A program made the position numbers and the translations under genes. Below, in pieces: positions 8,808 to 64,000 of a DNA stretch of 64,000 nt. How positions within the stretch are numbered: position 1 is the first letter of the stretch; each line of letters starts with the position of its first letter. Location: contig OZ316892.1 in the NCBI GenBank assembly GCA_973895155.1, positions 23,351,168-23,415,167 on the forward strand. Reading direction: 5' to 3'. This DNA comes from Marsupella aquatica (lineage: Eukaryota; Plantae; Marchantiophyta). Under the pieces are notes generated by a model. The model was not told where the DNA came from and made no database searches. It was given only the letters and a program-made list of their open reading frames with translations.

Positions 8808-9113
8808 CTAAACTCACTAGTAGAAACCACCCCATTTTGTGACCAGACCAGTTATGACAGGCACCACCAAAGTATTAGGATTCAGCATCCAACGTTGCGA
8901 TGCTTGCCTTGTATGAGGCCACCACTAGCTAGCTGTAGACTTGTCGTTATTCACCATGTACATAGGAACGTTAGATTTAGGGCTAATGTAGTTTTACGGG
9001 TCAGATTAAGACCCACTCCCGTCTATTCCGCTGGGATGTAATCGGGCCTAGTTGATTAGTGGCCATTCTTCCACTTTCACTTATCATTCAATAAAAAGCA
9101 GAAAAGTTTTTCA

Positions 9114-9125
9114 TGGTATTAGAGC
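9114..9125 (+). promoter_or_regulatory. Primer-binding site (tRNA-iMet 3' end) of the outer Copia
   Basis: TGGTATTAGAGC differs by one base from the canonical TGGTATCAGAGC and directly follows TCA. Confidence 0.75.
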
Positions 9126-9481
9126 TAGATTGCGCACGGACTGATTGCTGCACACTGACTGATTGCACTGCATCTATTATGGTGCGAAGATGAGCAATGT
9201 GAGCAGCACCTCACAATATTCACAGAGCAGCAGCTCACAGGGTGGCAGCTCGCAGAGTAGCGGCGCACACAATGTCAACCTTGATCTTGATTCACTCAAG
9301 GGGCTGAATTATTCCGAGAAGGAGATTTAACTAGATGGATCAAAAAATTTCATCAGTTAAGTTGGTCCTTTAAGGTCGAACGTCAGTTTTGGAAAGATAA
9401 AAGTCTGGTGGGAACTCATCAGTCCAGACACTTCCAGACGAGTATAGCTGAGTCCTGAACAACGGGAGGAGAAGATTGAAA

Positions 9482-9965
9482 CCCAGGTACGCAACTCTCA
9501 TATAATAGACAGGGGTCTATATTTTTATATGGACTAAAAAGTTGGCTATACAAAATAATTAAAATTTGAAAAACCTTGGGTTTTCTACTTTTAAAAATTT
9601 TCAAGTCATATTATAAATGGTTTGGTTTTCTTCATTTTCCATATGAAATTAAAAAATATTCCTATACATGTTGTAATTTTTATTAAAAGATTTTTAAAAT
9701 TATAATAAAAATCCTAAAAAGCTGGCTAGTTTGGCTGTATACCCTTGTATTAAAAAAAACCCATATATACTTTGGTTTTGATCAACTTTTTGCACATCAA
9801 AACATGTTTGGTTTTTTCTTTAAGTTACATTTTTTGATTCCTTGAGTTCAGAGGTACAAGACTTTAGTAGACCAAAATGAAATCTAAGATGGTCAATTGG
9901 ATATAAGGCCATTATAAGGAATTAAAAACTTGCCTTATAAAAAGGGAAGTTGTAGCATACCCGGG
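9482..9965. mobile_element. 484-bp MITE inserted in Copia gag
   Basis: Termini CCCAGGTACGCAAC...GTAGCATACCCGGG with a perfect 8-bp TSD GATTGAAA (9474-9481 and 9966-9973). The gag reading frame resumes on either side. Confidence 0.9.
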
Positions 9966-40007: not shown

Positions 40008-40304
40008 CTCGGGGGTCTCACTATATGGGGACCTCCCCATCGCCTGCGACGTTTTGAGGCCTGGGACCCCCTAAAATGTAAGAAAAAAATATTATTTTTT
40101 AACCCCTATAAAGTTGGAATATTCTTGGAATATTCTAAAAATTGGATTAAAAAGACCCTAATGTTCTTATAAGTCTCAAAATTGAATTTAAAAGACCCTA
40201 TTGTTCTTCTACAAAAATTCTTAAGTCTTCCCTTAGAACCAATAAAATGACCCTATCCTTCGTCGCACGTGATATGCCATTTTTGTGGAAGTGAAACCCC
40301 CGAG
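40008..40304. mobile_element. 297-bp MITE, copy 1
   Basis: TIR CTCGGGGGTCTCAC / GTGAAACCCCCGAG with 8-bp TSD AAACCCAC. Confidence 0.92.
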
Positions 40305-41889: not shown

Positions 41890-42900
41890 CCTGTGCCTCG
41901 TAGGACCTCTCCTCCATTGGTCTCTAATGACTTATGGGTAAACACACTTTTGGCTGGTGCAAGAGAGTTGTTAGCAGCATCATCAGATCCCCCTCAATGT
42001 AGCCTCCCTTGTGTTGATCTGGAGACTATACCAGTTCCATCTAGGGTTGGTCGCACCCGAGCACGTTCCCAAAGACAACAGTGTCGTTATGAACCCTTGG
42101 GTGTGCATGAGACCGAGGACCAAGTTCTGCACCATACTCATAGAGTACCGCCAGGAGAGGACTATGTGGAAGTGGAAGGGAGGTTGGGGCTTTCATATGT
42201 CACTGGGAAGGCATTGACAGTCTTGAAGGATTTCTCATCTGAGAGATTCAAAATACCCCCTGGCCTAACCACTGACACTCCTATCCACATATGGGGTCAC
42301 CAATGGATAGTGAAGACATCCTCCCTAGGTCCTGACATAGGATTTGGCGTATTTTCCTTGGAGGACATTTTGGTCCCTGCAAAGCCATGGCCCCGAGGTT
42401 ATGATGGGGAGCACCTATTTCCATATATTGGTCCCGTATACACTTCAAAAATTTGGAACATTCTATTGCGCCAACACCCATCTTGGGGTGTCTATGCATT
42501 GCAAATGGATTCTGATCCAGATGAGGTCATGCGGAGGCCTTGGCATTCTCGGATGATTGATGGGGACCCTGTTTGCTCCGACAACATAGCCGGGTACATT
42601 AATAGTACTCATGGGAGAGGGAGAGGACTTAGGCCTAATGTTGAGTGGATACAAATATTTGGTCCACCTAGAGAGCCTTATTATGTAAAACACATGGATG
42701 ACCATGTCATGACTGTAGCCATTACAACCATTAGGGCTGGCGAGGAGTTGTTTTGCGACTATGAGTGGGATGCTCCCAAGAAAGCATTCCTTTCTCACCC
42801 TGTGAAGGGCAGACATGGATATACCACCTCTTTTGTTGAACATAAAATACATGACAATGGTTTCCAAACAAATTTGGTTCTTTGTATAAATAAATCCTAA
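41890..42900 (+). CDS. SET-domain protein exon inside intron 1 of CACTA TnpD
   Basis: VKTSSLGPDIGFGVFS (GxG), IDGDP...NIAGYINST (motif III-like) and IRAGEELFCDYEW (ELxxDY). The acceptor AG at 41888-41889 is in frame with the TnpD exon-1 donor at 41790. Confidence 0.82.
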   Translation, partial: PVPRRTSPPLVSNDLWVNTLLAGARELLAASSDPPQCSLPCVDLETIPVPSRVGRTRARSQRQQCRYEPLGVHETEDQVLHHTHRVPPGEDYVEVEGRLGLSYVTGKALTVLKDFSSERFKIPPGLTTDTPIHIWGHQWIVKTSSLGPDIGFGVFSLEDILVPAKPWPRGYDGEHLFPYIGPVYTSKIWNILLRQHPSWGVYALQMDSDPDEVMRRPWHSRMIDGDPVCSDNIAGYINSTHGRGRGLRPNVEWIQIFGPPREPYYVKHMDDHVMTVAITTIRAGEELFCDYEWDAPKKAFLSHPVKGRHGYTTSFVEHKIHDNGFQTNLVLCINKS

Positions 42901-43627: not shown

Positions 43628-43924
43628 CTCGGGGGTCTCACTATATGGGGACCTCCCCATCGCCTGCGACGTTTTTAGGCCTCGGACCCCCTAAAATGTA
43701 AGAAAAAAATTTTATTTTTTAACCCCTATAAAGTTGGAATATTCTTGGAATATTCTAAAATTTGGATTAAGAAGACCCTTATATTCTTATAAGTCTCAAA
43801 ATTGAATTTAAAAGACCCTATTGTTCTTCTACAAAAATTCTTAAGTCTTCCCTTAGAACCAATAAAATGACCCTATCCTTCGTCGCACGTGATATGCCAT
43901 TTTTGTGGAAGTGAGACCCCCGAG
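43628..43924. mobile_element. 297-bp MITE, copy 2, inserted in the TnpD coding sequence
   Basis: Perfect 14-bp TIR CTCGGGGGTCTCAC with 8-bp TSD TGCGTATG. Near-identical to 40008-40304. Confidence 0.93.
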
Positions 43925-46900
43925 TGCGTATGATGGTGGACTCACCTGCCAATAGGTTTGTGGAGGACCGATGGGGTGAGTTCAAGACAAATCCACGTCA
44001 TGTACGTCTAGGTTTGGCATCAGATGGGATCAGCCCCTTTGCATTGGCAGGGAAGGCCCAACCATACTCAGTTTGGCCAGTAGTCCTTACAAATTACAAC
44101 ATCCCTCCATGGATGGCCATGAAGAAGGGTCATTTGCTGCTCTCAATGATTATCCCAGGCCCCAAACAAGTAAAAAAGATTGATGCTTACTTGCAACCAT
44201 TGTTGGAGGAGCTTCAACAACTATGGAGAGGAGTGGATTTCTATGATGGTCGAGTGCTTACGGGTGGTTTACCTCGTGAATTTAAATTGAAAGCCATCTG
44301 TATGTGGGCCATACATGATCTTCCGGGTATGTGGAAATATACCTCATCCCATATAAATTATGCATGGTTTGTCATTTCTGGATAATATACCTCACCCCAT
44401 ATTAATTATGCCTTGGTTTATCATATATTGGAGCCCTGGCCATTGTTTAATGTATGCAGTGGGTGTGAACATTGTAGGGTTTGGATATATCTCTGGGTTG
44501 CAGGTCTCGGGATACCGAGCTTGCCCAACTTGTGGGCACGATTTGGAGGGAGTGGCGCGCCCAAAGTCTACCACCCTACGGAAGATAGTTTACATTGGTC
44601 ACACAAAGTATCTCCCCCCAGAGCATGAATGGAGGCGTGACCCATTCTTATACAACACAGATGATGGCCAACCAGACACACGCCCTCAACCAGTGCCAAG
44701 GGATCCACATTATTGGAAAGATGTATGGGATAGAGTGACAGACCCGGATGATCCATTACAATTGGCCCGATGTGGCATGACTCGATTGTCTGCATTAATG
44801 TCAAAGCTGCCATATTGGGCTGAGATGCCAATTAACCATTTGTTTGACCCTATGCACATTGAGGGGAATGTTGGGAGGTCATTGATTCGCCATCTATATG
44901 GAGAGAAAGACAACAACTGGAGAGAGAGTTGTGAGGAGATGGGGAGATGGCGATGCATGGCCCTCATGGGTTTTGGCCATCTATGGATCCTCCTAATGCC
45001 CCCCTGACTATTCACCCTCCTTGGGTATTGACCAGAGGTGAGCGGACTGAGTTTCGCAAACGTATAGGGTCAATGAGGTTTCCCACAGGTTATGGCGCCA
45101 ATCTTCGTAAGGCATTTGGGGGTGATGATTCTCCAAAATGGCCATCTTACCTGAAAATACATGATTTTCATCGGTTACTCGAACATGTCATTCCAGTTGC
45201 AATTATTGGATTGGGTAGTGAGGATCTTCGAGATGCCCTATGGTCATTAGGTAAGCTCTTGAGGTGGGTGTGTCAGAAAGAGGCGAATGAGGATGAGATT
45301 GCAGCAATGGACCTTTTTGGAGTGGAGGTATTCTTTGATGGTCAAGTTCACTTCCTCCTCCACCTAGTGCGTGAGGTTGCGATTGCAGGGCCGGTACATT
45401 GTTGTTGGATGTACTGGGTATATAGAGCAGTATATGGGAGTGATGAAGTCATATGTGTCAAATCATGCAAGAGTGGAAGGTAGCATTGTTGAGCGTCATC
45501 TTGGAGCAGAGAGCATGTTTTATTGTACAAACATTGTAGCTACACTTGATCCCAGAGCTCCAAGGGGCTGGATAGACGAGGCATCAAGGGAAGCAGACTT
45601 TGAGGATGACCGTCTCACAGGGGCAAAGGGAGAACGACTTATGGACTCAACTGAGCGTCTTCAACTTACTACATTTATGTTGTATAACTCGCCTGAGATT
45701 GTGGGAGATTGGACAACTTTTTATGAGGAGGAAAAGGCAAATAGTCGTCGGCCACGCAACTTCCCCAAGTTTGTCCCATACATGAGGGCAAAGTTGACAG
45801 AGATTGATGCCTTGTTGGAGCAAGGGGAGAGTGTGTCAGACTTCCCTTTGGTTACAGACAGTTTTCGCACCTTGGTTCATGGACCATTACTTACGGTGAC
45901 AACTCGGACAGCCATGTGGTCAAAGGGAAGACATTTTTGTGTGCAATGACTTGATGACAAGAGGGCAGCTACACAAGATTGTGGGCTCATGGGTTGGTTC
46001 ATCCAAGATTCACAAAGTAGCATATCTGATAGGAATCCAATACGCTCTATGGTGGCCCACTATGGAAAGATTGAAGAGATATTGAGTGTGAAGTACCATG
46101 CGCACACCACTTTGGAGGAGGTGGTGTTGAAGTGCAAATGGTTTTGGATGAACCTTGTTGGCCAAAACCAAACTTGCAAAGAAGATGCTTGTGGGTTCAC
46201 ACGGTTGAAGACAGGTGCAAATAGTGTCATTAGCTCAACTTGGAGAACCTCTGATCCATTTGCATTCCCCCATCATCTTGAGCAGGCCTTCTATCTTCCC
46301 TATCCCGATGATCCTGAGTGGTCCATTGTCATGAGTTATATTCCACGATCACGATCCATAGTCCAGGAGCGACCCAATGTAGTTGTAGTAGAAGATTTGG
46401 ACCCTGAGCCTTGAGGTCCTTGCTAGTGTACCTTGGGACCAATCAAATAGGACCACCTCTGAATGTTTACTTTTACCGGCATTATTTTTATGATTGTTTT
46501 ATTTCATGTACCCTCTCCTATGAGAGTGACCACATTTCTTAATAAACTTATGAATGTTGGTTTTCCCACACTCTGTCCGATGTAGTGACCAATGGAAAGT
46601 ACTCGGAAACATAGTGCCTTACAATTGTGGCAATATCCGATTCAATCTGCATCGGACCCCTCATGAAAGTTATCGGAGATATTTCCGATCCTCTCCGCAT
46701 CGGAACACTTCCGATGCCAAAAATAACGGAAATAGGGACCGATGGCTTTTGTATCGGAAAAATAATATGCGATGTAAAAATAATGGCAAATTGCGTAAGG
46801 TAAAATATCGGAACTGTGCGACGGTATTAGTATCGGAAGAGTGACGAGGCACAATATCGGAGCATTGGAAAAACACTGAAAATGTACTAGTGCATGTAAG

Positions 46901-47358: not shown

Positions 47359-50138
47359 TCTCCCGGAGCACCACCAAGGCTGAATACAGGGCACTATCTC
47401 AAGGGGCTCGAGAAGGGGTTTTTCTTCGTCGACTTATTGCTGAGCTTCAGTTCATTCTTGCACTTTGGGTGGCACTTCATTGTCCCCAGCAGCCCGATGT
47501 CCTTTCTGGTTTGTCCATGGCACAAACACCCACCACTCAAGATTTGCATCTAACTCTGCATTGTACGTGACAATCAGGGTTCCATCAACCTTGCCAAAAA
47601 TCCAATTTTTCATGCTCGAACCAAGCATATTGAGCTGCAGTATCACTATATTCGTGAACGTCTGCTCGAGGGGGAGGTATCTGTCAAATATATTTCTGCG
47701 ACAGATAATCCAGCAGACATTCTCACAAAAGCACTTTCAAAGTGGAAATTTGAGCAGCACCAGAGTTTTATTGGAATGAGATCTTTACAAGATGTCTTGG
47801 CCAGCTCGCCATCTACCTTTGCTCAGAGTGAGTGATATCTCTGTAAATCTCTAAGCAATACTCACATCGGTATATCTCCTTTCCAATGTGATCTTGTAGC
47901 AAGGTGATAAAGAGATAAATGATTGTTTACTCCTTAACAAGTTGATTTTGTTCCCGTTAGGAGTGGATAAGATGGAAAAGACTAAATTAACACAATTTGA
48001 GAAGTTTACACCAACATTCTTAGGTTTGAGAGATTTCTAATGATCTCCTTAACATAAGTGTTTAACCACAAACTCAAGTGAGTAATCCTCAGGATTCATA
48101 GTGCAAAAATAAATACTAGAATTAGCAAAGATTCAAACTAGAGAGAGTAGGTATGAGGTTTCAAAGTGCAAGGACGTTGAATTTTGACCATCACCACTCC
48201 TTCAATAAGGATTATGGCCTAATTTAAGATTCGGAAATCAATATTGTGTATGCTTTTTGATTTCTCATAGCAACTCTTCTTCATCTCTTGAATTCAGAAT
48301 ACAACAATGTAAATCAACCCTGGACACTTTTCTGGTCTTGCATAAGACGGTACTAGAATACTCAAATTGGTTTACTTCTCTTACTATCCTTAAGATTGCT
48401 TGTTTGATCGAGTTTCATGCAATTTCAATTTCCTCTTTGATGAATCTTCTATATGTATTGGTCACAAACCCTGCTAATCTTCCAATATCGTCATAGGCAC
48501 ACGCTAGTATCCATTGAATCATTGCACAACAACTCAAGGGTTGCTAATCTTGAACTTCTCTTTACTTAACCATGGTAAAAAGAAGGGAATCTGAAAAGAC
48601 ATAGATTCATCCAAAATCAAAATGGGGAAATCAAATGCATCTCTCTCTTGGTTGACTTTGGGCTCTGAGCCTCCTTTTGTACTAAAAGTGGAGATTATGA
48701 AAAAACATGCCTTTTCAAAACCCAAGTCTAAAGGAATATGTAAATAAAAGTAAACTATCATAGTCAAAAATATATGGAGTAGAGTCTCCAATAGATATAT
48801 CAACAAAATATTGGAGTCTACTTACTCATATACTAGTCTAGTACATAGCCATTTCTAGGTCTAAACTAATGTGGCTCTAACTCTCTAAATATAACTCTAT
48901 TCTGGTCCTAACTTTTGAGAAGGAACCTCCTTAGGGCTAGCTACAACAAGGGGCTCTGGTCGGACGAAAACTCCCTACTGTCCAGTGGTAAAAGGAAGGG
49001 ACGGGTCAATGTCCAGGTTCTCCTAATGAGCGCTTGGATCATGGGAATAAGTGTAAGAATGAGAGTGGAGGTGTGTATTGGTGGTGTAAATGTATCATCT
49101 ACCTTGGCACTCACATCTACCACTGACATGATTTCGGACCAATTGAGAAGTATTTCCGCACATAGAGAAGGGTGTTTTTCATTCTCGCCAATTTTGTTGA
49201 AATGACACAAATAGCGATCCAAAATTCCGCAATATCCCAATAGTTCCATTTTTGTATCGTAGATGGGATTTCATTGAAGGGGTGAGCAATGCCCACAGAC
49301 TACCTCATTATATATATTTAAACTTCCGAAATGTACTGTTTGTTGTTGACAACGTTCAACTTTGTTTCCAACATGGAAAATCCTTATTTTCCGTCAACTT
49401 GTACACATGGAAAATAGTTTTGCTTCCAAACCCAAACACATAAAGGAAAGCAACTAGCGATACTCGTATCGCAAACCACATTCATCATTTGAGAATATAC
49501 TCCAAAAGTAGCTCAACCTCTCCTTTCAAAAACTTTACTATCAACAATTTGAAAAGTTACATCATAGTTGCCCAAAATTTACTACACAATTCAACGCAGT
49601 TGATCTACTTTTAACCAAAAAGTAAAGTGACAAAATCATGGTAACCATTCCGCCTAACCATCGTGAAAAGTGATTGTGAATCAGCAAAACTATGGTACAT
49701 AACTCCAAAGCACAATATGTGCACCTTTTACAGGACCAATTTGAAAAAATCACCCCAAAATGCAAAAAGCGATACTTGTATCGCATCTAGAACCAAATTG
49801 TCTCAATGGCTGATTAAAGCAACCCACAGTACAATATCCCAAATAGAATAAAAACTGCATCCACCCCGGAGGAAACACTTAACATGTACATTAATTTTGT
49901 CGTTAAAACACTAATTTGAACCTTTTTTAATCACCCAAGCTATTTTGTCGTGTAGCGGCTGACCAGTCAGAAGTAGCCACATGGCTCAGGGTCACCAAAA
50001 ACTATAAATACATCAACGCCGACTAAGTTTTTTGCACCATTTTGTTTCACAAAGTTATGCGTCTATTTGAGTTTTTTGAGCATAAGAGCATTTTGTGACA
50101 GGAATGCCCAACAGTATAGAGTTAGTTATATGTTAGCC

Positions 50139-50612
50139 ATGTCTCAAGAGTGGTCGCCCTCCAGTTCAGTTGAGTCCTCCCCCAATGGTGGTCCTCATGG
50201 TCGTCGATGTTTGCCAAATCATATTCGGAAATTACTCCCAGTTTCTCAACAGAGTGTACCCGAAATATCGGACTCTGATTCTGATGGAAGTTCTGAACCA
50301 GAACCTGGGGCTTACTATGTGTCACCTAGTAAACCTGATAAACGTCGGCTCCTAAACATTGCCTCCCCTCGGATGCAAAAGCTTTCTATCCAAGGTTTAG
50401 GTTCTAGACATCAATTTAGACCGTCTATCCCTAGGTATGGTGAAGGAATCAAGAAGACAATACGCGTATCGGCAACGAGATTGGGATCTCCAATTGACGC
50501 TTCAAGTTTCCAACAGGTGCCAGAGGAGAGAAGAGAAGGTCGAATGCAAACAGCGATACGTGTATCGCCATTTGCATTGCCTTTGAGGGAATCAGTTTTG
50601 CCACAGGTGTAG
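50139..50612 (+). CDS. Short Ser/Pro-rich ORF of unknown function, possibly a truncated paralog of the transposase N-terminus
   Basis: TATAAATA at about 50003. The acidic SDSDSDGS segment resembles the low-complexity N-termini of the DUF7869 genes. No domain was recognised. Confidence 0.3.
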   Translation: MSQEWSPSSSVESSPNGGPHGRRCLPNHIRKLLPVSQQSVPEISDSDSDGSSEPEPGAYYVSPSKPDKRRLLNIASPRMQKLSIQGLGSRHQFRPSIPRYGEGIKKTIRVSATRLGSPIDASSFQQVPEERREGRMQTAIRVSPFALPLRESVLPQV

Positions 50613-51302
50613 CGAAGGATATTTCTTGGGACAGACGTGAGAGCGCAAGGTACAATACACACAACGATACGTGGATCGCCATTTGCATTGCGTCGAAGAG
50701 AACTGGTTCTCAGCAACAGCAAAGACAACGGACTACAAAGTCAACAAGAAGCCTTAAATGATGAGTAACAAGCCCATACTTTAGGAACTCTAGCCAAAAA
50801 ATCAGAAAAACAACGAAAAAGTCAAAAAAAGTGCAAAAATTAGCACCTATTTTAGAGCAAAAATATGGAGCGAACAAAATATGACATAAACTAGCTATGT
50901 TTTGACACCTAAAAATGACCAAATTCATCTGAAGTTACATTCCACCAATAAATGATCTCAAATACAACACTATTATCTACAATGGTCTCACAATTACACG
51001 AGGTGTCTTTTGAAACAACAACTAAATCACCTCCAAAAGCCATTGTCATTTAAAAACCAGAAAATAAATTACTACAACTTAACCTGATACACATTATTGT
51101 GAAAAGAAGACAAGGAGAATAGAAATGACACCATCTAATTGAATTGAAACACAACCCACTAAGATAATATTAAACTACAAATTTCTCAAGAAACTTTAAC
51201 CATGAATTCATGAATAAGTGGTAAAGGCATTTTGAAAATTTGTAAATTTTCAAGTTATCCATGTTTTTCAATGGTAATGTCACAAACAATAACTACTTTT
51301 CA

Positions 51303-54300
51303 TTACTCAGATCCAGAAGTTCTCAATTCTTGAAACGAAATATCCCTAGATTTATCTCCTAGCGGGGTTCTAGTTGATCCATTCTCTTGTTCTTGCTCTT
51401 TCTCTTCTGCCAAAAATTCAGTCAATCGGATTTTGATTCGATCTACTGTCTTTTTGTACAATGTATCAGATTTTGTCAACATGAAGTTGTAAGCAAAAAC
51501 AGTCGTTGAAGATAAATCAAGCTCTTGGTGAAACCATATTGGTTTCAAAGTTCCTTTCCCACGACCACGTTTCTTCTTTTCGTAGTTTAAGACTTCTGGT
51601 AAGTACTTGGCTTTCCAAGGATCTGACCCGGTTTTTGGAGCATGCCATAAAACATAAATCATTTTTGGAATGTTGAACTCGTCGCGCTGGTCAATTCTTT
51701 CCACCTTGGCCACCCAAAATGTTTCCGATTCTTCTCCAGCAACAGAAATATAAGTGTTGACTTCAAGATCCGAAAAGTCTCCTTCCATATTCTCCTTCTC
51801 TGCATCTATCTTTCCTTGATTCCGATAAGGACCCACGTATATATCTCTGGTAGGTCCGTATACTCTCTCTTCAATTTCCTCTTCATTGACAAGGACTCTG
51901 GGAACTTCAGCAGCAACAGCAATCTCCCTTTGGGAGCGTGGCCATTGAAAAGGGAAAATCAATGGTCTTTGATCAAGGAGCAAAGATTTATTCAATTCCC
52001 GTTGCTCTTCAAAAAACATTCTCCACCAGTTCACTTCCTCTTCTGAGAATAAAGTTTCAACTGCAAGTATTCCCTTTTGAATCTCATTTAACGAATCATC
52101 CATCTCCTTCAAAGTCATTCTTGAAGAACTAGACATATTTGGTTGAGTCCTTGTAACGTTCTTATCCCCCTTTTTGAAAAGGGGTAATCCGGGAGCACAA
52201 CCCATCACCTTTTCTGGCTCCTCTTCCCTCAAAAATTTCACGCCTCCGTCAGGTTTCCAAGTTGAGTCCGTGGAAAACTTCTTCCCCCATTGGGTTGGAA
52301 CTTGATTTTCCAACTTGTCAAATGCAAATTTGTACTGGTGGTGGAAGGTAACATTTCGAATCCTTTCAATGACTAAAGGTGGATCTGAGAAGGCATATTG
52401 ACGGAAATCATATGTTTCCTTTAAAAGAGCGATATTTGGTTGGGGTTGATATGATTCACAAATAATATCACATAGGCTTTCGTATGTGAATGCCTTAAAC
52501 CTTGCTAGTCGTTTAGAAAATCGACTGAACATTTGATCTATTTGGTCGTGTGTGTGTCCAACCAACAAGAATCCTAGTTTGATTTTCCGAAAAACCTTTC
52601 TTCGAATCAACATATGAAGATAGGCAAAGAGTAAATTATTTTTATTTTCTCTACTGGTATTATCAAGTTGAAGATAGAGAACAGGCGGCAAGCCACCAGG
52701 CTTTTCTTCCCATTCGTGAAACACCCTTTGCAGGATTGTGACTGTCAAGTTTCCATCATTATGCAATACAGGATAATTAAGAAACACTCTTGAAAATAGT
52801 GCACCATTGAAAACCAGGCATCCGACAACGTGCATTTGGATCAAACATGTTTCGTCCACCGATTTTGGGGGCCGCGGCCAATGAGGCAACCTTGTCTTCT
52901 TCTGATCCATCCCATCAATGACAACTCCCAAATATTTATCAGAATTTGAAAAACATTTCTTACGATGCTTCGCGAGTTTCTCACGTTCTTTGGATTGTTG
53001 GTCTCTATGTTTTTGTAACATAATTTCCCCTCGCCCTGGAAAAACAACTTGTTAGTTTCTTAAAAAAAAAAATTAGAAATCATGTGTTAAGCCATATTCT
53101 TGAAACAAAAACTTGTCAAACTTGTAAGCAACTTACTCTTTTCGGTCTCCGAGACAGCTTTGTCCCGAATTGATTTGAACTCCTCGCAATCCGCGCAAGC
53201 ACTGAATCGATTGACTGGAGGAATCTTCACATGACCAAATTCTTGAACCCAAACTTTCAAGAATTGTCGATAGGATATTTTTGAAGATTCATCAATCTTG
53301 GCATAGTTGGAGTCGTAGATCTTCCATACCTCCAGCTTTGAATAATTATCCGGTAAATGTGAAACTTCTTTATTTGGCAATGTTTCCACGCGTGTCTCAA
53401 AAAACGACCTAAGCCAACTGACCAAGACTAATCTTTTAACAGATGGAGGGCGTCCAACTGGTTTAGAATATCCTAAGTCTTGGTTGTCTAATTTCAAAAT
53501 TCTATTTAATCTATGATTGCCAACGCAAAATATAAGCTTGAAAGCTTTCCGACAAATACTCTTTTGACCAAACGTGTAAGATATAGTCTGCCTCCCTCCT
53601 TCATTTCCGTCTCGCTTTATAAGCCACTGCAAAGATAAAGATCGATCCTGAGATTTCTGCCTCAAAAATTTAGAACGGGCCTCACGAATTTCTTTTGGAG
53701 ATAGACTTAGGAGACAATGACTCTGACAACAGTACTTACTATTTGTTTTCTTGATATCCTCCTCTTTCAACTTTGTTTCACACAAAGTGGCGTTGCTCGT
53801 ACGTTTGTAACGACTAGATGCCACCGGAACATCATCATCCTCCCCACTCTCCGAAGACTCGCTTTCATTCGATGATGAAATGGTCACCAACATTTGCTTC
53901 TGAACATGCCTAGATTCCAGACCTGCAGCCTTCGGAGATGGAGGCTCTTCCTTCACTCTATGCACCCTTGGAATACCTGGGCGTATTTCAGAAATCCCTC
54001 CATTACCGTGTAGGGACCCTTTCAATATTTTCCTAGGGTCCCTCTCCACCAGGTTGGTTTCCCTGTTTGAGTTTCCGTGACTTGATCCGCTCCCTGCCCC
54101 AACACCATGACTCCTAGGTAAAACTGAGGAACGCACATTAGAATTCTTTTCTGGAATACTTTTCAATAACACTGGTCGTCTAGTTTCTTCCCTCATCCCC
54201 CTGTGAAATGTTTCCGACGTTGGCTTACCAAAGGTTTTACTTTTTGGCATTTGCTTCAGCCGCTGAACACTTTGCAGACTGCAAAAATCTCTGTCATTTT

Positions 54301-54703
54301 CCCCACTTAGTGCCTTCTTCGTCTTTCCAAATCCAGTCTTCATGAATTCATGAGACCGTTTCCCAGACATCCAAATAGGCATTGAACCTTCCAGATTACT
54401 CCCCAATTTGTCCTTTGTTGGTGACAAAGGAGATACAACTTGACGTCCAGGGGGACCAATACTCTCCAAGGAGTCAGAGGAGCTCCCTGACCTCTCTTTA
54501 CCACCGACCAATGATTTCTTCCCACTAATTGCAAGTCATAAAGGACTACGTTTTAACTTGCTCATAGGGGTGGGGGGTGGCATATCTAAAACAGTAGTTA
54601 TTCCAGGGATATCTGGGCCAACCACTGTGCAGGGGCCATCCGGCAATGAAACATCATCAGAAACTCCATCTGAATAATCATCTGATTCGTAACACGCCGC
54701 CAT
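51303..54703 (-). CDS. DUF7869 / Sola-like DDD transposase 1 (exons 54703-53137 and 53035-51303; one premature TGA at 54536-54538)
   Basis: Motifs: CCQSHC, ICRKAFKLIFCVG, FSACADC, IDGMDQ, LYLQLDNTSRENKN, FLLVGHTHDQIDQMFS, plus a C-terminal FWVAKV...YVLW beta module. It has a phase-1 GT-AG intron and TATAAATA on the minus strand near 54802-54809. Confidence 0.85.
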
Positions 54704-55246
54704 TGGAAAAACTAGTGCAAATTGACAAGAAACTCAGAAAATCAGTAAAATCTAACAAATGTTCTCAAAATAATGACCAAGAGTCATGAATAAACGAGCC
54801 TATTTATAGTTTTTCACGGATTGTTGGGACTTTTTAACTTCAAAAATATCAAATATTCATGAAATTTGCAAGCTTTTACCCGTTAATACCCCGAAATATT
54901 CATGAATAATTGGCCCAAAAACATTGATTTATCATGATTCTGGGTTAATTTTACTAAGTCGCGCCTGATCCGTGATTAGTATGTATAACCAAGGAACACG
55001 GGGCAGCCCATTCATTTTCACTCAATGTCATTTGGATTTCCTTTGTAAAAGAGTGAAAAACAATCTCGCTATCCAATTTCGTGCCATTTTCAGCACTCAT
55101 CGGCGACGTGTCGCGAGTTGTCGCGGTCGCACTTCATTTCAACCCTGTTTTAGGTAGTAATTTAGGCCCTGGGTGATGTCTTCACGTCACCCCCTCCGAA
55201 CCCTATTTTAAATACCCTTCTGCATCACCGAGGTGTACAAGCAAAG

Positions 55247-55396
55247 AGAGAGGAGACTCCCTTCATGAATTCATGAAGGTCGGAGCGAGAGGGAGACTCC
55301 CTTCATGAATTCATGAAGGTCGGAGCGAGAGGGAGACTCCCTTCATGAATTCATGAAGGTCGGAGCGAGAGGGAGACTCCCTTCATGAATTCATGA
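55247..55396. repeat. 40-bp tandem repeat x3.7 containing the perfect 20-bp palindrome CCTTCATGAATTCATGAAGG
   Basis: Palindromes at 55260, 55300 and 55340, plus a partial one at 55380. The array lies between a TATA-like box (about 55204-55214) and the methyltransferase ATG. Confidence 0.95.
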
Positions 55397-55561
55397 TAGG
55401 AGTCCTGGGGTGGCCGAGAGCGTTGTTAGATCCGTAAGGACACGGTTTTAGTAGCCATTTGTTGGCACATTCCTTGGTTCTGTGGCACTTTGTCTCGCAG
55501 GTTGGGGTTGAAGTGGACTGATTTTGTGGTATGTTCTCAGGTTTGAAGATCAGGCAAAAAC

Positions 55562-58500
55562 ATGACAATGTCGCAGGAAGAGCTGGTGGATGACATCTTT
55601 TCGCGCCATCCTTTGACGGACTTCCACAACTCATCCTGGACGATTTCCTTAGGGACGGAAACATGGAAGAAGCCCTTCCTAATGCTGTGTGTATTTGAGG
55701 GGCTTCCATCGGGGGCATTAGGGTGGGTAAATTACGGCCGCATCGATGTATTTCGACGGGGCGACGAAGTTGTGAACATGTTGATCACAACGAAGGAAAC
55801 ATCAACTTTGATTGTCGTGGATGTGGAGAGGTTTTCTGGAACGGCTGCCACCTGCTATCTCGATGAGGACATCGATAGCATCATTGAGACTGTCAAGTCT
55901 CTTTCGAGTGAGGAACGTTACCACGACGTCGCGGGAAAGATTTCCGGTTTTGTGTTTGAATTTCACGCTAGCACTTTAAAGAGTGCAATCCGAAAATCAA
56001 GAGAGATTCTCCGGAAAAGGTCGGCAGAGAAGGGAGTAAGTCGTCCACCCAAATCTGGGGCTTCCGGTGTTCCTTCTGGATCGAGGCCTAGCATTTTACC
56101 CGATGATATTTTGACCGTGGTAGCGCCTACAACCTCCCGGGAAGCAGCAGCATCTGGAGGGGGATCTCAAGTTGGCAGATCATCCCAGGGAACGACTTTG
56201 ACTGGTGGGTCGGCACAAGGTACGACTGGAACTCGCATTTCTTCAAAGAAGCGACCTGCTATGACTCCTAAGCCTACCGAGCCCAGTGCTACAAAGTCAA
56301 AAAAGAAGACTTTGGAGAAAATTCCAACGCATTTGGAGCAAAAGGCTCAATCAATGTCAATGGATGCACGGGTATTGTACCAGGAGGAGATTCTGGGAAG
56401 ATGTGGTGTTCAAGAGGAGACCGTGACCGTTGACATTGGTCAACTTTACCCTCCAGTGAGAGAGAAGGCTGTGGGCTTGCCCATTTACCAGGTCCGACAC
56501 ATCCAACCATATTTCTTGACCCAATTGACCTTGCGGATGAAGACTGTGGGTGCCAGTCCACTTGCAGCTCCGTTTGTCCTCTTGGTGGATCCGAAGGAGT
56601 GTGCTACTAGGCAAGACTTTGATTTTTCAAGGAAAGCTGATTACCATTATTATGTGATTGGGGGCAACCATTCAGCCTGTGCCAAAGCAGACCTTGCTCT
56701 TCAGTTCCCTAACAACAAGGCATTTCGGAGAGTGCAATCTTGGATATTTGCGGGATTGAGTGTGCAAGAGGCAAGAAACCTTGCGTGGAGTCACAATATT
56801 GATTCTGAATTTCGACAACAGATGACGACAATCCAGAGAGTAAATTATATTCACATGAGATTTGTTGAGAATGGATTGTCGTCCAACCAGGATTTCAAGA
56901 AAGAGTGTGCTACTGAAATCAATCTCAAGGATTGGGGTGTACGAAAGGATGCTGAGGTTCTTAATGCCAATGATAACCTATTTCAGTTGGCATTCCGACA
57001 AGATCCTGTGTGGTCATTTGTGAGGCAGATTTGTGACAAGTGGGAGATGTGTGAGATCAAAGGTCAAAAAGGAGACAAAGGCAAGAAGAAAGTCTCTAAG
57101 TCTGGAGATGCCAAATTGCCTTATGAAGACATGAAATTAACAGAGTGGAGACACATGCAGGCCTTGAAAGATCCTGATATGATTTGCCCAGTGTTACAGA
57201 GAGTTCTTACTAAAGAACTCTCTTTACAGGAAATGGGTCACGAATTTACTCGACACAAATTTCAGATGCAGGTGCAGAAGGCCTTCCTCACGTGTCTACA
57301 CGAGGAGAGTTGGTCAGGTTGTAAAACCAAGTACCCTGAGCATTGCACAGACAATGTGCTTAAGAATTTTGTACCGGTTTTCCAGACATGGGTAAGATTC
57401 TGTCACCTTTCTTCGAATGATTGTTTGAATTCATTTAATATTTGGAATCCTTGTTTCTAATTCTACAGTTCCTTTTTGTAGAAAGATACCACCTCCCGGA
57501 AAAAGAAGGGAGATGAGGAAGGCAAAGATCTCAAGTCATTCCCGGACAAATTCAATGCGCATATTGTGCAAGCCCAAAATTGGCTATCCATGAAGACTTC
57601 TAGTCGGCAAACCCAAGAGGGGGAACTTCATCCAAATTCGTTTGAGCATCCAGAGTTTGGTGATGTGCACTATGATATTTTTACTCATGATGCTCAGCGA
57701 TTACATGAGGTGGTTCCGGGTCGGGCTTACACATTAGCTTTAGTGGATATTCCCTACGGGTTTGCATTGCCTGGATGTCTTCATGAAGACACTATTGGAT
57801 GGGGAACTGAGGAGATCACAAAAATGGTCCAATCGTTCAAGGTGGCTACTACTGCAAAGTTGTGGCGTATTATCATTCACCACAGCCTTGACCAATATGA
57901 GGCCATCAAGACCGTTTTGAAAGCGGAGTGTAATGGAGGGTTCCAGAATTGTGTGTGGTAAGAAATATTTGTTTTTGAAAAAAACAACTATTAGTTATTC
58001 ATGATTTCATGAACCATGTTTCTCAGTTTAAATAACTCCTTGACTTTTTGTGACTTTTCAGGGTTAAGGATAATGTGAAGAATGCTGGTGGACCAAGATT
58101 GAACAACAACTTTGAGTGCTTTACAATTGGCTTTCACAGCCAGGATGGTAAACGGTCATTGGAGCACTTCAATTTTGACACAAATGAATCAAGGAACAAT
58201 GTGGTTGTATGCGCAGCTGTGACTAAGAAGCTGAAACACAACGGGGATAACAAGGCAGTGAATGTTTATCAGAAACCACGTGCATTGTTAGATTGGGAAG
58301 TGAGTCATTTTAGTCAGGTTGGAGACTGGGTTTTGGATATTTGTTCAGGATCAGGGACTGGGACAACCTCCTCCTTGGCCATGGGGAGACATTGCGTTGC
58401 CATTGAGATTGACGAGCGACAGAGCAGTGTGTTGAAAGGGAGGATTCTTAACCTTGCAGATAACATTGAAGAGGAAGACGGACAGGGGGAGATGGATGAG

Positions 58501-58623
58501 GAGAGTGAGGAAGACATTCCTCAGGCCGGAGAGGATAGCGTGGTTGACGATGCCACAATTGTTCCAGAATTGACGACAGGGACTTCCGGAACCGAGGAAG
58601 GGGAAGCGGTCCCTTTGGATTAG
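55562..58623 (+). CDS. ParB-like + beta-class N6-adenine/N4-cytosine DNA methyltransferase 1 (3 exons, 955 aa, intact)
   Basis: Exons 55562-57391, 57482-57957 and 58062-58623 are GT-AG, in frame and total 2868 nt. A ParB/Srx-like YYVIGGNHS motif comes first. Catalytic motif IV LVDIPYG precedes YQKP...VLDICSGSGT...GRHCVAIEID (motif I), which is the permuted order of the N6_N4_Mtase family. Confidence 0.88.
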
Positions 58624-59025
58624 ACTAGATAAATAGAGGGACTCGTAGCATTTGAAACCACTTGGGCTTAAGTTGGGTTATATTTTGTAAAACTTTGAGT
58701 TTGACTTAAACTCTGATCGATGAGTTTGATTTTGATTACTTTTATAAAGTGCATATTTCAAGGTTTATACAATTGTGAGAATATCATATAAGATATGCTT
58801 AGATTTTGGTGGTAAAATTCTCTTGAGTCTAGTTTGGAAAATACATACCATTTTTTGGTGGTTTTTTGGTATACACTTTTTAATATCATGAAGATTTTGA
58901 AAAGAGAAATAAGGCTTTGGACTCATCCCTTAAGGCTTCTTGTTAGTCCAGAATCTGCGCAATCTCAAATTGTAGTGGGGAGATGTGTACAATGATTATT
59001 CGATGCTTCTCCAATCAATGGACCA

Positions 59026-61884
59026 ATGGCAGCCGCTCGTGTACACAATACAAGTTTGGGGAACAATCAAGACACACCATTGATGACCGCCAGACCCACT
59101 TCTGCAACTAGGAGTGTTTCTAGACAGCCAATTAGACGTCTTCAAGTTGCTAGACGAGGCCTCACTAGTTTTAGCGGAGTTCAAATTATGTACAGAGAAC
59201 CAAGAAGTCCAATAGTGTTTTCTGATGAGTCAAGTGAGGAGGAAGATGTTGAGGAAAATAGACAGTCGCAAGCCATTGCACAAGTTGTATCAGAATGTTT
59301 GGAAACAAATGAGGGCGAGAGTAGCTATAGTCATCTCTTTAGTGATCCGAGAAATCCCACTCTACCTTCAGATGATAGTAGCTCAAAAGATACTAATGGT
59401 TCTATTCCGGAAGTTGCAGAGAGACAAGAGAGTGAAAATTCACTCCATGGATTTCACAGTATGGAGAAACAAAAGGAGCTTAGCAAGAAAGTGAGAGACA
59501 AGCTTGTGAGGAAAGATAATGTTACAAATCAAAATTTAAAGACAAAAAAAATGAAAGAAGTTTTTAAGTACCATGTTGTGATAATTTGTGTTTGAGAAAT
59601 TTTGGTCTAGATTTAGTGACAAAACACCGAACCTTCTATTATGGCTTATCATCGACCAAGAAGAACATACTTCTAAGGGGCTGTTTGAAAAGTGGGCACG
59701 GTGGTCCAACCGGTTACATTGTTGACGGGAGATCTTTTTGTCGAGAAGGTTTCAAGAAATTATTTTCCGTTGGAAATAATCGGCTGCACAGAATCTCAAG
59801 GAATACGTTTTCTCGTATTCAAAATGACACATTTTGCAAGGAAAAATCGGTTACTCATCTTTCACTAGTTCAATGGTTGAATGAGTTTTTCATGTCAAAT
59901 GTTGAAAGTCTTCCAAACAAGGACATCTTCCACTTACTAGACAATTGGATGAAAGCTAAAGTATTTGATGCTTTCAAGACTGATACTATGGTGCGGAAGG
60001 AAACCGAGATCACATATTCTTGGTTTGTTTGCATCTGGAACAAAGAGTTCCCCAGGGTGCATATTCCAAAAAATAGTCGCTTCTCCACATGCGGTCCTTG
60101 CATAGAGTTCAAAGCACTTCGCGACAAAGCAGTACTTGAAGTAGAAAAACGTAAGTTGTGTCTACCTTTAAATAAGTAAAGGATTGATGTTAAGTACTAC
60201 ATTATTTACTTGTTTGGTTTGGTGATGCGGTTATTATTGACAAAACATTGACGTTCATTTGACAGGAAAATATTCAACACTTTTGAACCAACATCGGAAA
60301 GCACAAGGAGTTGAGAGGGAGAAATTAGCAAAGCACCGAAGCAAGTGCTATAAGAGTCCAGAAAATTATTTGGGGATCTGCATTGATGGTATGGATCAAA
60401 AAAAGACTGAGTTGCCACATTTCACTAGGTGCCCCAAAAACATGGACGAGAAGTACTTTATTCCGGTACATGTGGTGGGTTGTTTGGTGTTCAATGGACA
60501 TTTGACATCAAAAGTGTTTTTGAATTATCCAAACATTCACAATGACACCAACTTGACAGTGCATGTGATGCAACATATTTTAAATAGTTGGGAAGGTCCA
60601 CTCCCTCCAGTGTTGTATCTACAACTTGATAATACCCCTCGAGAAAATAAAAATAAATTTCTCATGGCATATTTGAATATGCTTGTTGAGATGAGGGTTT
60701 TCCAAAAGATCAAAGTTGGTTTTCTTTTGGTTGGACATACCCATGATCAGATTGACCAAATGTTCAGCAAGTTCTCCTCAAAATTAAATAAGCAAAAAGC
60801 TTTTCGGGTGGATAGTCTTGCAGACATTCTCAAGGATTCGTACAATCCAAAGGCTGAGATAATTTTTGTTGAAGAGGTTGCTGATTTCAAGAAGTTTGTG
60901 TCGGATAAAGACCAACCCAATGACATGGGAGGTATTGGGCATGTTTTGTGTCCTCTACATGGTATTAGTGGTCAAAAGCAATTTAGGATGAAGAGGGTTG
61001 TAGGAGAGAATGGAGGAACTTCAACTTTGTTTCACGCAAAGCATCTTTCTAGCACTCAAAGTTGGGGAGAAGCAGTGGAGTTCCTTAGATACATCCCCAC
61101 ATCTACCATGTGGGTTGCTGCACAAATGGCATTGAAATCTACAACCAGAGCAACAGTGGAGAATGATGAACATGATGACGGAGGCAATGGAGACGAGCGT
61201 CTTCTCTACAACCATGTTGCAGTCCTGGAGAAATATCGCAAATCAATTGAAGATGGATTCAATTACTTTGATGATGAGGATAAACTTTGGTGGCTCCATT
61301 TCTTTGACAACCAGAAAGAAGTGATTAAACACCACTTGAAGGCAGGACAATGGGTTTTTGATTGGACGTGGCCAAAATCAAATATTGGAGTAGAGACTCC
61401 AAGAAATGCACTTCCCCCACAAATAGAGCTAGCCTTGCTAGATAAAATTGCAGGCGCAACAACAGTCATGTACTCTGGAACAAGGAAGAAGAAAGCAGTC
61501 GAGGGAGACTTCAAAGATCTTGAAGTGAACACTAAATATGCAATGATTTGCGTGGCTGCATATAGGGATCCAAACAGCAGACCATTTTGGATGACAAAAG
61601 TCATAGATATTCTATCCAAAGTACAAGATGTTCCAGAGAACATCAAAATTGTATGGTATACAATGGATTCGCGAGAAGGGTCTGCTATGGAAGGTCAATA
61701 TTACCCTGAAAAAGCTGCATCCTCTAACAAGTTACTTGAGGACACATTGTGCCTCTCAGAAACCGCAGTTTATGCATATAATTTTGCACTGCTCTCAAAC
61801 AACACGCTTCCAGTACAAACAAAGCGAATCATCCAAGCAGCAATGCTCGACACGGAAATCATTGATGCAGATGACTGTGACTAG
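59026..61884 (+). CDS. DUF7869 / Sola-like DDD transposase 2 (frameshift near 59545-59570; intron 60151-60265)
   Basis: Same motifs as transposase 1 (CCDNLC, FCREGFKKLFSVG, FSTCGPC, IDGMDQ, LQLDNTPRENKN, VGHTHDQIDQMFS, FWMTKV...IVWY). The phase-1 intron is at the identical position after DKAVxExEK. Confidence 0.85.
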
Positions 61885-62049
61885 TTAGAGTAGGAAAAGT
61901 GCAGATAGGTAGGAATGTTGTTGGGAATGCTACATCCGATACATGTATCGCCAATTGCATTTCAAACCTCAAATAGAGATATGTTTATCAAGGTTCTCAA
62001 TCATTAATAGAAAGCCTTGATAAATCCTTAATAGTGTTATTGCACACAT

Positions 62050-64000
62050 CTAATCTAACAACATATCATTGAGTTCCCCATCGTCCGGTGTTCTAGGTAG
62101 CTCTTCTTCAATGTTTGGCTCATTTTCTTTAGGCTCCTCCTGGTCATCAGTATCCACATAAATGCTAGTACCAATGACTCCCAACTGCCCACCAACCGGA
62201 GGCTGAACTTCTTGTCCCTGGCCACCTTCACCGGACACTTGTGCTTCATCGTATAGAGTCCAGACAGATTCCAATGTCATAATCCGACTCCTCAAAAATT
62301 CTACCTGAGTCTCACCTTTGTCAACAGCACACCCATTCCGAGAGTTGAGAAGTGCAGCCACCAATGTTGACCCAGTTCCACAACAAAGGTCTGCCACCCA
62401 GTCCCCTTTCTCACTGAAATGATTAACAAACCAATCACCCAATGCAATTGGTTTTTGGTAAGGGTTTACAATAAACCCTAATGGACTCACAGACTTTGTA
62501 GTAACACAGGGAACTTTCACAATGTTCACCCTGCTTTCATCAGGAGCAAAATTGTACATCTCCTTCTTTCGGACTCCATCCTCACTGTAATAACCAATTG
62601 ACCAGTTCTCAAAGGCCCAAGCTAGCCTTGGCCCAGAAGGGTGCTCATGGATGTTTGTCTTCTCCCATATACCGGCCTCAACTCCGCAATTGCAAACCTT
62701 CTCAAGTGCGCTCATAACGCTATTTGTCTGCTGCAAGGAATGGATCACAACAAACCTCCACATTGGAGAGGTGGTGATTTTAGCAAAATTAGTAACCATC
62801 TCATTTACATCCTGTTCAGTGAAAGGTTCCTCGTCAAACTGAGAACCAGGGGCATTGAAACCGTATAGGATGTCTGCAATTGCCAAAGTGAAATGTTTTG
62901 GCTCTAGAAAGGTTTCTAGTTTCCGAATATCTCCAACATGAAGAGAATATGAGAATGCGTCTCCATTTGCATTCTTCCATTGATGTTGAGATGAAGCTGT
63001 AGCAATTGATGAGATATTTAGTCTCCGATTGTGTTTTTCAATTGCTTCAAGAACATAGTTCTTGAAGACGTAGGGGATGTCGCATGAAGGAATCTCAACC
63101 TCCACGCCCTCGTCAAATTCATTTCCAAAAATGACTTTTTTCTTCCTCTTTGAACTGATTTTGAACTGCACATTAAACAAAACTCTTTGTAAGATTTCCA
63201 AACACAAATTTTGAATGCCACCAGTGATACAAGTAACACTACCTGCATTCAATATCTCAAATATTTGCTTTGAATATATATAACTGAAAACAAAGGGACA
63301 TAAGGACATTGTGCTTACTGCTTCTGTGAGCTTTTCGCACCAAGTTGAAAGGACTTTCACATCGGTTTCCTGGGGAAACATTTCCCGGCATGTTGCCCAA
63401 TCTTTTTGACCAGAAATCTGCAGGAACAATTTCTTTACCTTTGCCAACTTCTTAAGTGTCTCACCTTCTTTGAACATTTGTTCTAGAGTGATTTTCTTTC
63501 CAATTACTCTGTTTAGGAGTCGCTTCACATGCTCCTGATTGGAAAGCCCCTGGAGAGCTCTGAAGACCCTCAAATTGAAATGCCCAGAGAGCTTGTTCAT
63601 TTTGATTTCACTTACACTCAGCGGTTTAGGTTTAGCTTTTGATTTACCTTTTGATGTTGCTGATAGCTGCTTGGCCATGATTGGCTTTGTTTGACCAAGG
63701 ATCTCAAACTTTTGCCACATAGAGAAAATTTTATCTTGGAGCTCCCAAATCTCCCCAGATTGAAAGGCAATCTGAAATGTAGGGTCATGTTTGGCCATTG
63801 AGTCACGAACACCTGGAGTGTAATCAAGCATACATTCCTTACAACAAGCTTCTTGCAACTCTTTAGTTGACCCCACATTCATTTCCATGAAAATATTGTG
63901 ACAGGCACGAACTTTGTCAATCGATGTCATGGTTTTCCGGTACTCCTGGTCGTAGTTATGCTGGAAAGCCAGCATCCTGATCTCATGTCTCGTTAGACCA
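62050..64000 (-). CDS. Methyltransferase paralog 2 (5' part runs off the window; probable 153-bp intron 63166-63318)
   Basis: LAFQHNYDQEYRKTMTSIDKV is homologous to LAWSHNIDSEFRQQMTTIQRV of copy 1. Motifs include IADILYG and NPYQKP...VADLCCGTGS...RNGCAVDK. The intron is at the position equivalent to copy 1 intron 1. Confidence 0.85.
   Translation of the reverse strand, partial: GLTRHEIRMLAFQHNYDQEYRKTMTSIDKVRACHNIFMEMNVGSTKELQEACCKECMLDYTPGVRDSMAKHDPTFQIAFQSGEIWELQDKIFSMWQKFEILGQTKPIMAKQLSATSKGKSKAKPKPLSVSEIKMNKLSGHFNLRVFRALQGLSNQEHVKRLLNRVIGKKITLEQMFKEGETLKKLAKVKKLFLQISGQKDWATCREMFPQETDVKVLSTWCEKLTEAVSTMSLCPFVFSYIYSKQIFEILNAGSVTCITGGIQNLCLEILQRVLFNVQFKISSKRKKKVIFGNEFDEGVEVEIPSCDIPYVFKNYVLEAIEKHNRRLNISSIATASSQHQWKNANGDAFSYSLHVGDIRKLETFLEPKHFTLAIADILYGFNAPGSQFDEEPFTEQDVNEMVTNFAKITTSPMWRFVVIHSLQQTNSVMSALEKVCNCGVEAGIWEKTNIHEHPSGPRLAWAFENWSIGYYSEDGVRKKEMYNFAPDESRVNIVKVPCVTTKSVSPLGFIVNPYQKPIALGDWFVNHFSEKGDWVADLCCGTGSTLVAALLNSRNGCAVDKGETQVEFLRSRIMTLESVWTLYDEAQVSGEGGQGQEVQPPVGGQLGVIGTSIYVDTDDQEEPKENEPNIEEELPRTPDDGELNDMLLD

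Follow-up and report, generated by a model that had tools for sequence, protein, structure and literature searches.

What is the function of a dispersed 16-bp palindrome, GCGATAC-NN-GTATCGC, that recurs towards one end of a 64,000-nucleotide stretch of contig OZ316892.1 (Marsupella aquatica, assembly GCA_973895155.1; the whole stretch is called the window here), among genes for two transposases and two methyltransferases? An earlier note on this DNA had taken the region from 49 to 64 kb for a single large element and the palindromes for subterminal or parS-like sites, bound either by the transposase or by a ParB-like domain. Our analysis showed that the region consists of two nested elements, each with a DUF7869 transposase gene and a gene for a ParB-like/N6_N4 methyltransferase (tnp1 and MTase1 in the inner element, tnp2 and MTase2 in the outer one). 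The GCGATAC palindrome is best explained, with a probability of roughly 0.6, as a family-specific site scattered through the outer element that is likely the operator of a predicted ParB-type DNA-binding/methyltransferase protein encoded by the element itself; this protein would sit on the site as a dimer and would probably methylate adenines of the element.

The window contains copia and CACTA-type transposon genes and introns, a content that is eukaryotic, and the named relatives of its proteins belong to Calypogeia, Riccia, Ceratopteris, Adiantum, Chara and Ginkgo, which makes a land plant without seeds the likely host. It was compared with contigs of several sequencing runs (X1, X2, X3, X5 and others), one of which may be the window's own source, and with related loci, numbered from L001 onward, from a metagenome scan that yielded 23 loci, five of them of the outer type and one (L006) of the inner type.

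A two-part palindrome confined to the outer of two nested elements

At up to three mismatches, seven matches to GCGATAC-NN-GTATCGC were found in the window where 0.64 are expected, and none of 100 shuffles reached seven (Table 1). The six copies that the earlier note had listed were all present, those at 49457, 49769 and 50553 perfect and those at 50457, 50664 and 61936 variants, and a seventh at 63224 has to be added to the list. It was also right that the first 49 kb are free of copies (none precedes 49457 at this threshold) and that CA(T/A)TTGCAT follows three sites (50553, 50664 and 61936). The 16-bp unit described there forms the core of a larger palindrome in two parts, about 38 bp long, GAATGC-N5-GCGATAC-NN-GTATCGC-N5-GCATTC, in which the arms are constant among sites and the spacer and N5 positions are variable. 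When a weight matrix was built from 27 sites of four related loci (L001, L002, L004 and L005), the seven window sites were the top seven positions in the window, and five of them scored above the maximum of 20 simulated windows, unlike the sites at 50664 and 50457. The term subterminal proved too narrow, since copies also lie in introns, between genes and inside exon 1 of tnp2.

All seven GCGATAC sites lie in the outer element, as expected from the proposed tie of the motif to a DUF7869/MTase element. The proposal of one large element had to be given up, because the 8.2-kb inner transposon has terminal inverted repeats (TIRs), a target duplication and a palindrome of its own, and the GCGATAC sites skip it. 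Excising 50743-58944 in silico restored tnp2 exon 1 in frame. An empty site exists, since in contigs of X1, X2 and X3 (from two studies) position 50738 is joined to 58945, four bases at the joint being ambiguous; X5 is without the joint, which is therefore seen in three of four runs. TTAA, considered as another possible target site of the inner element, would preserve the reading frame as well, but exactly one AGTC remains where the empty site is joined. The two genes point away from each other in the inner element and towards each other in the outer one, both elements are decayed in their window copies, and the stops at 50610 and 54536 are absent from other runs. The left end that the earlier note had placed near 49 kb was located at 49125/49126: contigs of X1, X2 and X5 start at 49126, X2 with a different flank, and in X1, X2 and X4 the host repeat extends past 49124. 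Other copies of the outer element appear to begin with AACA, as the inner TIR does. The right end lies beyond the window, and the MTase2 gene and the element run off its edge. Separately, a 151-base X5 contig joins the outer left end (49219) to the reverse strand near 50677 and is possibly a short derivative in another organism.

The inner element carries a different palindrome, with seven matches to TTCATGAATTCATGAA (a TTCATG-N4-CATGAA palindrome) where 0.08 are expected; none lies outside the inner element, and no GCGATAC palindrome lies within it. This second palindrome is likely the corresponding docking site for MTase1. Counted as clusters in the 49-64 kb region, this partition gave p values of about 0.02 (five outer clusters) and about 0.09 (four inner clusters), and because these values are modest the weight of the partition argument rests on the related loci.

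Family-specific palindromes in related loci

Four of the five outer-type loci share the 38-bp design with the core GCGA(G/T)AC (19, 6, 8 and 4 sites), and in the fifth, L003, a variant core, CCGATC-NAAAC-ATCGG, with one outer arm only, occurs at 21 sites. In the inner-type locus L006, CCTTCATG-CTAG-CATGAAGG occurs upstream of the gene and again within intron 2, at positions that match the inner sites of the window. The outer-motif matrix found no site above 8 in L003 or in L006-L026. All 58 sites of the outer-type loci lie upstream, in introns or between genes, and they crowd the methyltransferase promoter, introns and 3' end; none falls in homolog-aligned coding DNA where 29.9 are expected, although these are not independent counts because the sites are clustered. 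A detector of recurrent palindromes failed on L002 and L005, whose arms are asymmetric (it counted 1 in each), and gave 3 for the copia element of the window against a null of 1-2.

The palindrome design recurs in elements whose proteins are just 25-45% identical. Of four distant ParB-MTase loci, L009 and L010 (25-31% identity) carry a different two-part palindrome, some 40 bp long, in arrays that lie upstream, and no array was found in the other two, L007 (1.2 kb long) and L008 (without the upstream part of L009). L008 also holds, at 1915-3569, two convergent methyltransferase paralogs of the ParB-MTase family (76% complementary), with no transposase on the contig. The distant DUF7869 contigs L027-L029 each carry seven to nine copies of CGATTAC-NN-GTAATCG around and inside the transposase gene. 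This motif occurs 13 and 9 times in two genomes, and all but one occurrence in each is on L027-L029. The two exceptions, L040 and L041, have homologous exons (40% identity, E 4e-23) with a GNHR motif and a weak match to the ParB core (E 0.0038 among 1878 ORFs, i.e., open reading frames, for L040). The palindromes thus accompany both genes. The five contigs are intron-bearing and eukaryote-like, and their place in two bacterial genome bins is probably due to binning contamination.

The predicted ParB-like methyltransferase and other candidate binders

The accessory protein is predicted to have the fold of a ParB N-domain followed by a DNA-binding domain. An AlphaFold model of MTase1 (pLDDT 73, pTM 0.48, 16 sequences) had ParB or Noc proteins as its ten best Foldseek matches (E 1.9e-5 to 2.1e-4), with KorB also among the fold matches, and these matches back the earlier suggestion that the ParB-like protein is a plausible binder. 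Residues 286-566 align to the ParB N-domain plus DNA-binding domain with Z 9.4 and a root-mean-square deviation (rmsd) of 14 over 183 aligned residues, a deviation this large because the domain orientation differs; the N-domain alone matched PadC (Z 9.3, rmsd 2.8), residues 418-570 matched the Spo0J DNA-binding domain (Z 4.7, rmsd 4.4), and residues 20-141 are weakly PH-like. PF01555 was above cut-off in both MTase1 and MTase2, with the catalytic motif preceding the motif that binds S-adenosylmethionine (SAM), as in the beta class of amino (N6A/N4C) DNA methyltransferases. The catalytic motif of the window proteins is D-I-(P/L)-Y (for MTase2, DILY in the window copy and DIPY in other runs). 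Among 176 proteins scanned, D-x-P-Y was found in 72 and SPPY in one, which by the rule quoted in PMC8885841 favours N6-methyladenine (6mA) as the product. No ParA family was found among 10 element ORFs scanned, the outer right end lying beyond the window, and no bacterial or viral relative of the ParB region was confirmed among 57 and 4 candidate stretches. A predicted Chara braunii protein of 1825 aa (P0028) appears to contain two ParB-MTase units.

The transposases were assigned by Pfam to DUF7869 and not to a family of Mutator-like elements. They have a predicted RNase H-like fold with a conserved acidic triad, D43 (at a strand end), D124 and D166, and weak Foldseek matches to RNase HI, IstA and an integrase (E 4e-4 to 1e-2). 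Residues ~425-510 of tnp2 form a predicted beta-rich C-terminal domain, possibly Tudor- or BAH-like from its look, that is conserved among plant relatives and for the most part absent from those of animals. DUF7869 was absent from the 79 viral contigs searched.

We consider the ParB-methylase the likely binder because its predicted fold, like that of ParB, Noc and KorB, includes a DNA-binding domain and because the readable termini are without sites: the first 60 bp of the three contain no full site, and the outer end is at best two mismatches from GCGATAC. ParB and Noc read 16-bp inverted repeats. The ParB-type domain would dimerise on the 16-bp core, the outer arms adding contacts one turn away, and the protein would load at arrays in the promoter and introns, delivering its methyltransferase to the element. 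From there it may spread, as ParB, Noc or KorB do, and deposit 6mA, so that the element would be marked as self. The purpose might be that the element's genes stay expressible against host silencing by 5-methylcytosine (5mC), with the MTase promoter self-regulated. The predicted recognition helix reads H-D-P where the half-site is CGAT (window, L003) and H-D-H where it is CGAG (L001, L004; n=4). A much broader and tentative idea, which we think may well be wrong, is that a self-recognition code derived from bacterial parS/ParB operates in DUF7869 transposons of plants and of other eukaryotes, each family having its own dispersed palindrome, on which its ParB-methylase loads before it slides along the element and writes 6mA in plant chromatin; such codes would be orthogonal enough to prevent cross-reaction between two nested elements, and a few residues of the recognition helix may decide which base is read.

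Several observations weigh against the ParB-methylase as binder and marker of its own element. The fold is predicted for the inner protein, MTase1; the outer MTase2 shows 26-31% identity, and its N-terminal part is outside the window. The CTP-binding arginine patch of ParB, GxxR, is replaced by an invariant GGNH (16 of 16 rows), which makes CTP-driven clamping uncertain, and the outer GAATGC arms are no feature of parS. Three of the seven outer-type window sites and one of the seven inner-type sites are in open reading frames, and only 53 bp separate one TTCATG half-site from the right end of the inner element. L001-L006 all come from a single assembly. L027-L029 have no ParB gene on the contig, and because these contigs with DUF7869 only also carry dispersed palindromes, the data never separate the two genes. 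The ParB-core match of L041, with E 2.9 by hmmsearch and E 0.0014 by hhalign, is a weak one, and nothing came of two wider searches with full-length profiles in the genomes that contain L027-L029, L040 and L041. Finally, CpG depletion in the outer right part is 0.43 and in neighbouring retroelements 0.43-0.69; the outer copy in the window thus shows no protection from CpG loss, since its depletion is no weaker than theirs. CpG/CHG depletion was set aside as an uninformative sign of protection.

Rather unlikely, but the alternative that survives best, is that the DUF7869 transposase itself uses its N-terminal Cys/helical region to bind the sites, which would serve transpososome assembly as internal enhancers or be regulatory sites of the kind known for Spm TnpA and the AtMu1 transposase. 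Half-sites in two parts would presumably suit transposase DNA-binding domains. The palindromes of L027-L029 lie around and inside the transposase gene, L005 has one site in a transposase intron, and five of the seven sites in the window sit at the 5' end of tnp2. That transposases can be sequence-specific regulators of their own copies (10.64898/2026.08.24.746577) likewise speaks for the transposase and against the ParB-like protein. However, the termini, which a transposase must bind, are without a full site, the arrays reach their highest density around the ParB-MTase gene, ParB-like exons occur on L040 and L041, which share the motif of L027-L029, and the Bostrychia element, whose transposase is unrelated, has such arrays beside its ParB gene (10.1101/2025.02.11.637652). 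Quite improbable, in our judgement, is that the ParB-like protein is an operator-binding repressor or autoregulator only, in the manner of KorB, with methylation absent or incidental. KorB is among the fold matches, arrays stand directly upstream of the MTase start (site 373 of L003 and 55262-55397 of the window), the catalytic motif, DIPY or a variant of it, differs from DPPY, and sequence searches of the PDB, with the MTase profile among the queries, gave no significant match to a solved structure; set against this, D-x-P-Y and the SAM-binding motif are conserved across the family, and sites also occur in introns and 3' ends, far from promoters. That the palindromes are by-products (remnants of small repeats, RNA hairpins or sites of host transcription factors) with no element-encoded binder has very little to recommend it, for although many copies are in tandem arrays, which can spread by slippage, and several window copies are decayed, the arms stay fixed where spacer and N5 vary, the sites have no target duplication or shared flank, and the cores are family-specific, strictly partitioned between nested elements and of a design that recurs in distant proteins.

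The remainder of the window and known self-binding systems

The features of the two elements are collected in Table 1.

Table 1. Elements, genes and palindromes of the nested locus, in window positions.
Feature	Position	Strand	Remarks
Outer element, left part	49125..50742	+	terminus at 49125/49126
Outer-type palindrome	49446..49483	.	core 49457-49472, perfect
Outer-type palindrome	49758..49795	.	core 49769-49784, perfect
tnp2 exon 1, first part	50130..50742	+	stop at 50610 in window copy, read through in other runs
Outer-type site, decayed	50446..50483	.	core 50457, 3 mismatches (1 fewer in other runs); in tnp2 exon-1 frame
Outer-type palindrome	50542..50579	.	core 50553, perfect, both outer arms; in tnp2 exon-1 frame
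Outer-type palindrome	50653..50690	.	core 50664, 2 mismatches; in tnp2 exon-1 frame
Left target-site duplication AGTC	50739..50742	+	joint with 4 ambiguous bases
Inner element, 8202 bp	50743..58944	.	TIRs, target duplication, empty site; inserted in tnp2 exon 1
Inner left TIR, 32 bp	50743..50774	+	27/32 bases match right TIR
Inner-type palindrome	51199..51214	.	2 mismatches
tnp1, inner DUF7869 transposase	51303..54703	-	one intron; premature stop near 54536 in window copy
Inner-type palindrome	54339..54354	.	inside tnp1 frame
40-bp tandem repeat, 3.8 copies	55246..55397	.	four inner-type palindromes, upstream of MTase1
MTase1	55562..58623	+	two introns; PH-like N-domain, predicted ParB-like and helical DNA-binding domains, and N6_N4 methyltransferase (motif DIPY)
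Inner-type palindrome	57998..58013	.	in MTase1 intron 2
Inner right TIR	58913..58944	-	pairs with left TIR
Right target-site duplication AGTC	58945..58948	+	copy of left AGTC
tnp2 remainder, DUF7869 DDD transposase	58949..61884	+	stop 58993, frame break near 59570, one intron
Outer-type palindrome	61925..61962	.	core 61936, 1 mismatch; between convergent tnp2 and MTase2
MTase2 3' part	62050..64000	-	ParB-associated helical region and methyltransferase
Outer-type palindrome	63213..63250	.	core 63224, 3 mismatches; in 153-nt MTase2 intron (63166-63318)

Elsewhere the window holds a copia retrotransposon (23422-29423) that is a very recent insertion, since its 141-bp long terminal repeats are identical and a GAAAC target duplication flanks it. 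Two copies of a 297-bp miniature inverted-repeat transposable element, 97% identical, lie at 40008-40304 and 43628-43924, with CTCGGGGG termini, each having an 8-bp target duplication of its own. A foldback structure of about 2.4 kb is formed by nested long inverted repeats at 7597-9982. On the minus strand, two ORFs at 21567-22962 have sub-threshold Pfam matches only and are presumably pieces of a Mutator-like transposase, and an ORF of 1220 aa at 30517-34179 includes a coiled-coil region and reached the cut-off of no Pfam family. A SET-domain ORF (41893-42900) lies ~1.5 kb upstream of fragmented CACTA-type transposase ORFs (44360-45949); by analogy with red-algal Plavaka elements, this is possibly a CACTA element carrying a SET gene (10.1101/2025.02.11.637652).

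The locus resembles the bacterial systems ParB/parS, Noc/NBS and KorB/OB in its predicted ParB N-domain plus DNA-binding domain and in a 16-bp inverted-repeat core present in several copies. It differs from them in that no ParA was found, in GGNH for the arginine patch, in the outer arms, in the fused methyltransferase and PH-like domain and in its introns, and no partition role is expected. Unlike the N4-cytosine methyltransferases of Marchantia and bdelloids, which have SPPY, the window proteins have D-I-(P/L)-Y. The 4-bp AGTC duplication of the inner element fits the Sola superfamily, for which Bao in 2009 is said to have given a target duplication of 4 bp. The AWWT preference described for Sola1 (PMC3845634) does not extend to the inner target AGTC (n=1), the parts of PMC12973397, PMC5751038 and PMC4455052 available give no Sola sequence motif, and Sola membership of these elements is unproven.

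The closest known design is that of Sola1-1_Ec32 of Ectocarpus, a 21.5-kb DNA transposon whose second gene, on the strand opposite the transposase as here, encodes a ParB-like domain and an N4/N6 methyltransferase proposed to bind and modify its own element (PMC12477816). The main text of that paper, in the parts available, has neither 'palindrom' nor 'subterminal' and defines no binding site; unlike that brown-algal element, the present ones are from a likely land plant, have defined sites and form two nested families with different sites. In the red alga Bostrychia, the Plavaka (EnSpm) gene PAG3 encodes a ParB-like domain, lies beside tandem inverted-repeat arrays, is proposed to bind its own element, and has as best match 7BNR, also the top hit here (10.1101/2025.02.11.637652). 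There, however, the transposase belongs to another superfamily, ParB is fused to a 2-oxoglutarate oxygenase with a methylase on a separate gene, and the arrays adjoin the gene, whereas here sites are also in introns and between genes. VANDAL elements of Arabidopsis share with ours family-specific motifs in intronic, intergenic and terminal non-coding DNA (with coding exceptions in the window), spread by tandem repeats and divergence along with the element, and binding of their motifs by VANC, which causes 5mC loss, has been shown (PMC5735166). They differ in being Mutator-like with non-palindromic motifs of 8-9 nt, VANC is not described as a ParB or methyltransferase protein in the parts available, and binding in our elements is inferred. 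Spm TnpA and the AtMu1 transposase likewise act on clustered family-specific motifs that co-diversify with the lineage and are bound by an element protein, but their binder is transposase-derived and their motifs are mainly terminal (10.64898/2026.08.24.746577). The ParB-HTH fusions of PMC4738411 belong to a different, chlorophyte clade of Dam type, and neither 'ParB' nor 'Sola' occurs in the available parts of a study of retrotransposons (10.64898/2026.05.21.726589).

In the literature searched, which left subscription journals and bioRxiv supplements aside, we found no mention of DUF7869/PF25273, no ParB-MTase transposon of a land plant and no defined or co-diverging site. The self-binding design is already known as a hypothesis, since the Ectocarpus and Bostrychia papers propose that ParB-bearing accessory proteins bind and modify their own transposons, giving, in the parts available, neither a test nor a site. 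What is added here is a likely land-plant lineage, sites that are defined for each family and lie in introns and flanks, and the nesting of two orthogonal systems at a single locus. The idea is directly testable at this locus because exact candidate sites of two families stand side by side, each the negative control of the other. If the ParB-methylase does bind them, these elements would represent a second route of plant transposon self-marking beside VANDAL, built from bacterial parts, and they would offer a source of sequence-specific adenine methylation in land plants together with a natural series of reader/site pairs.

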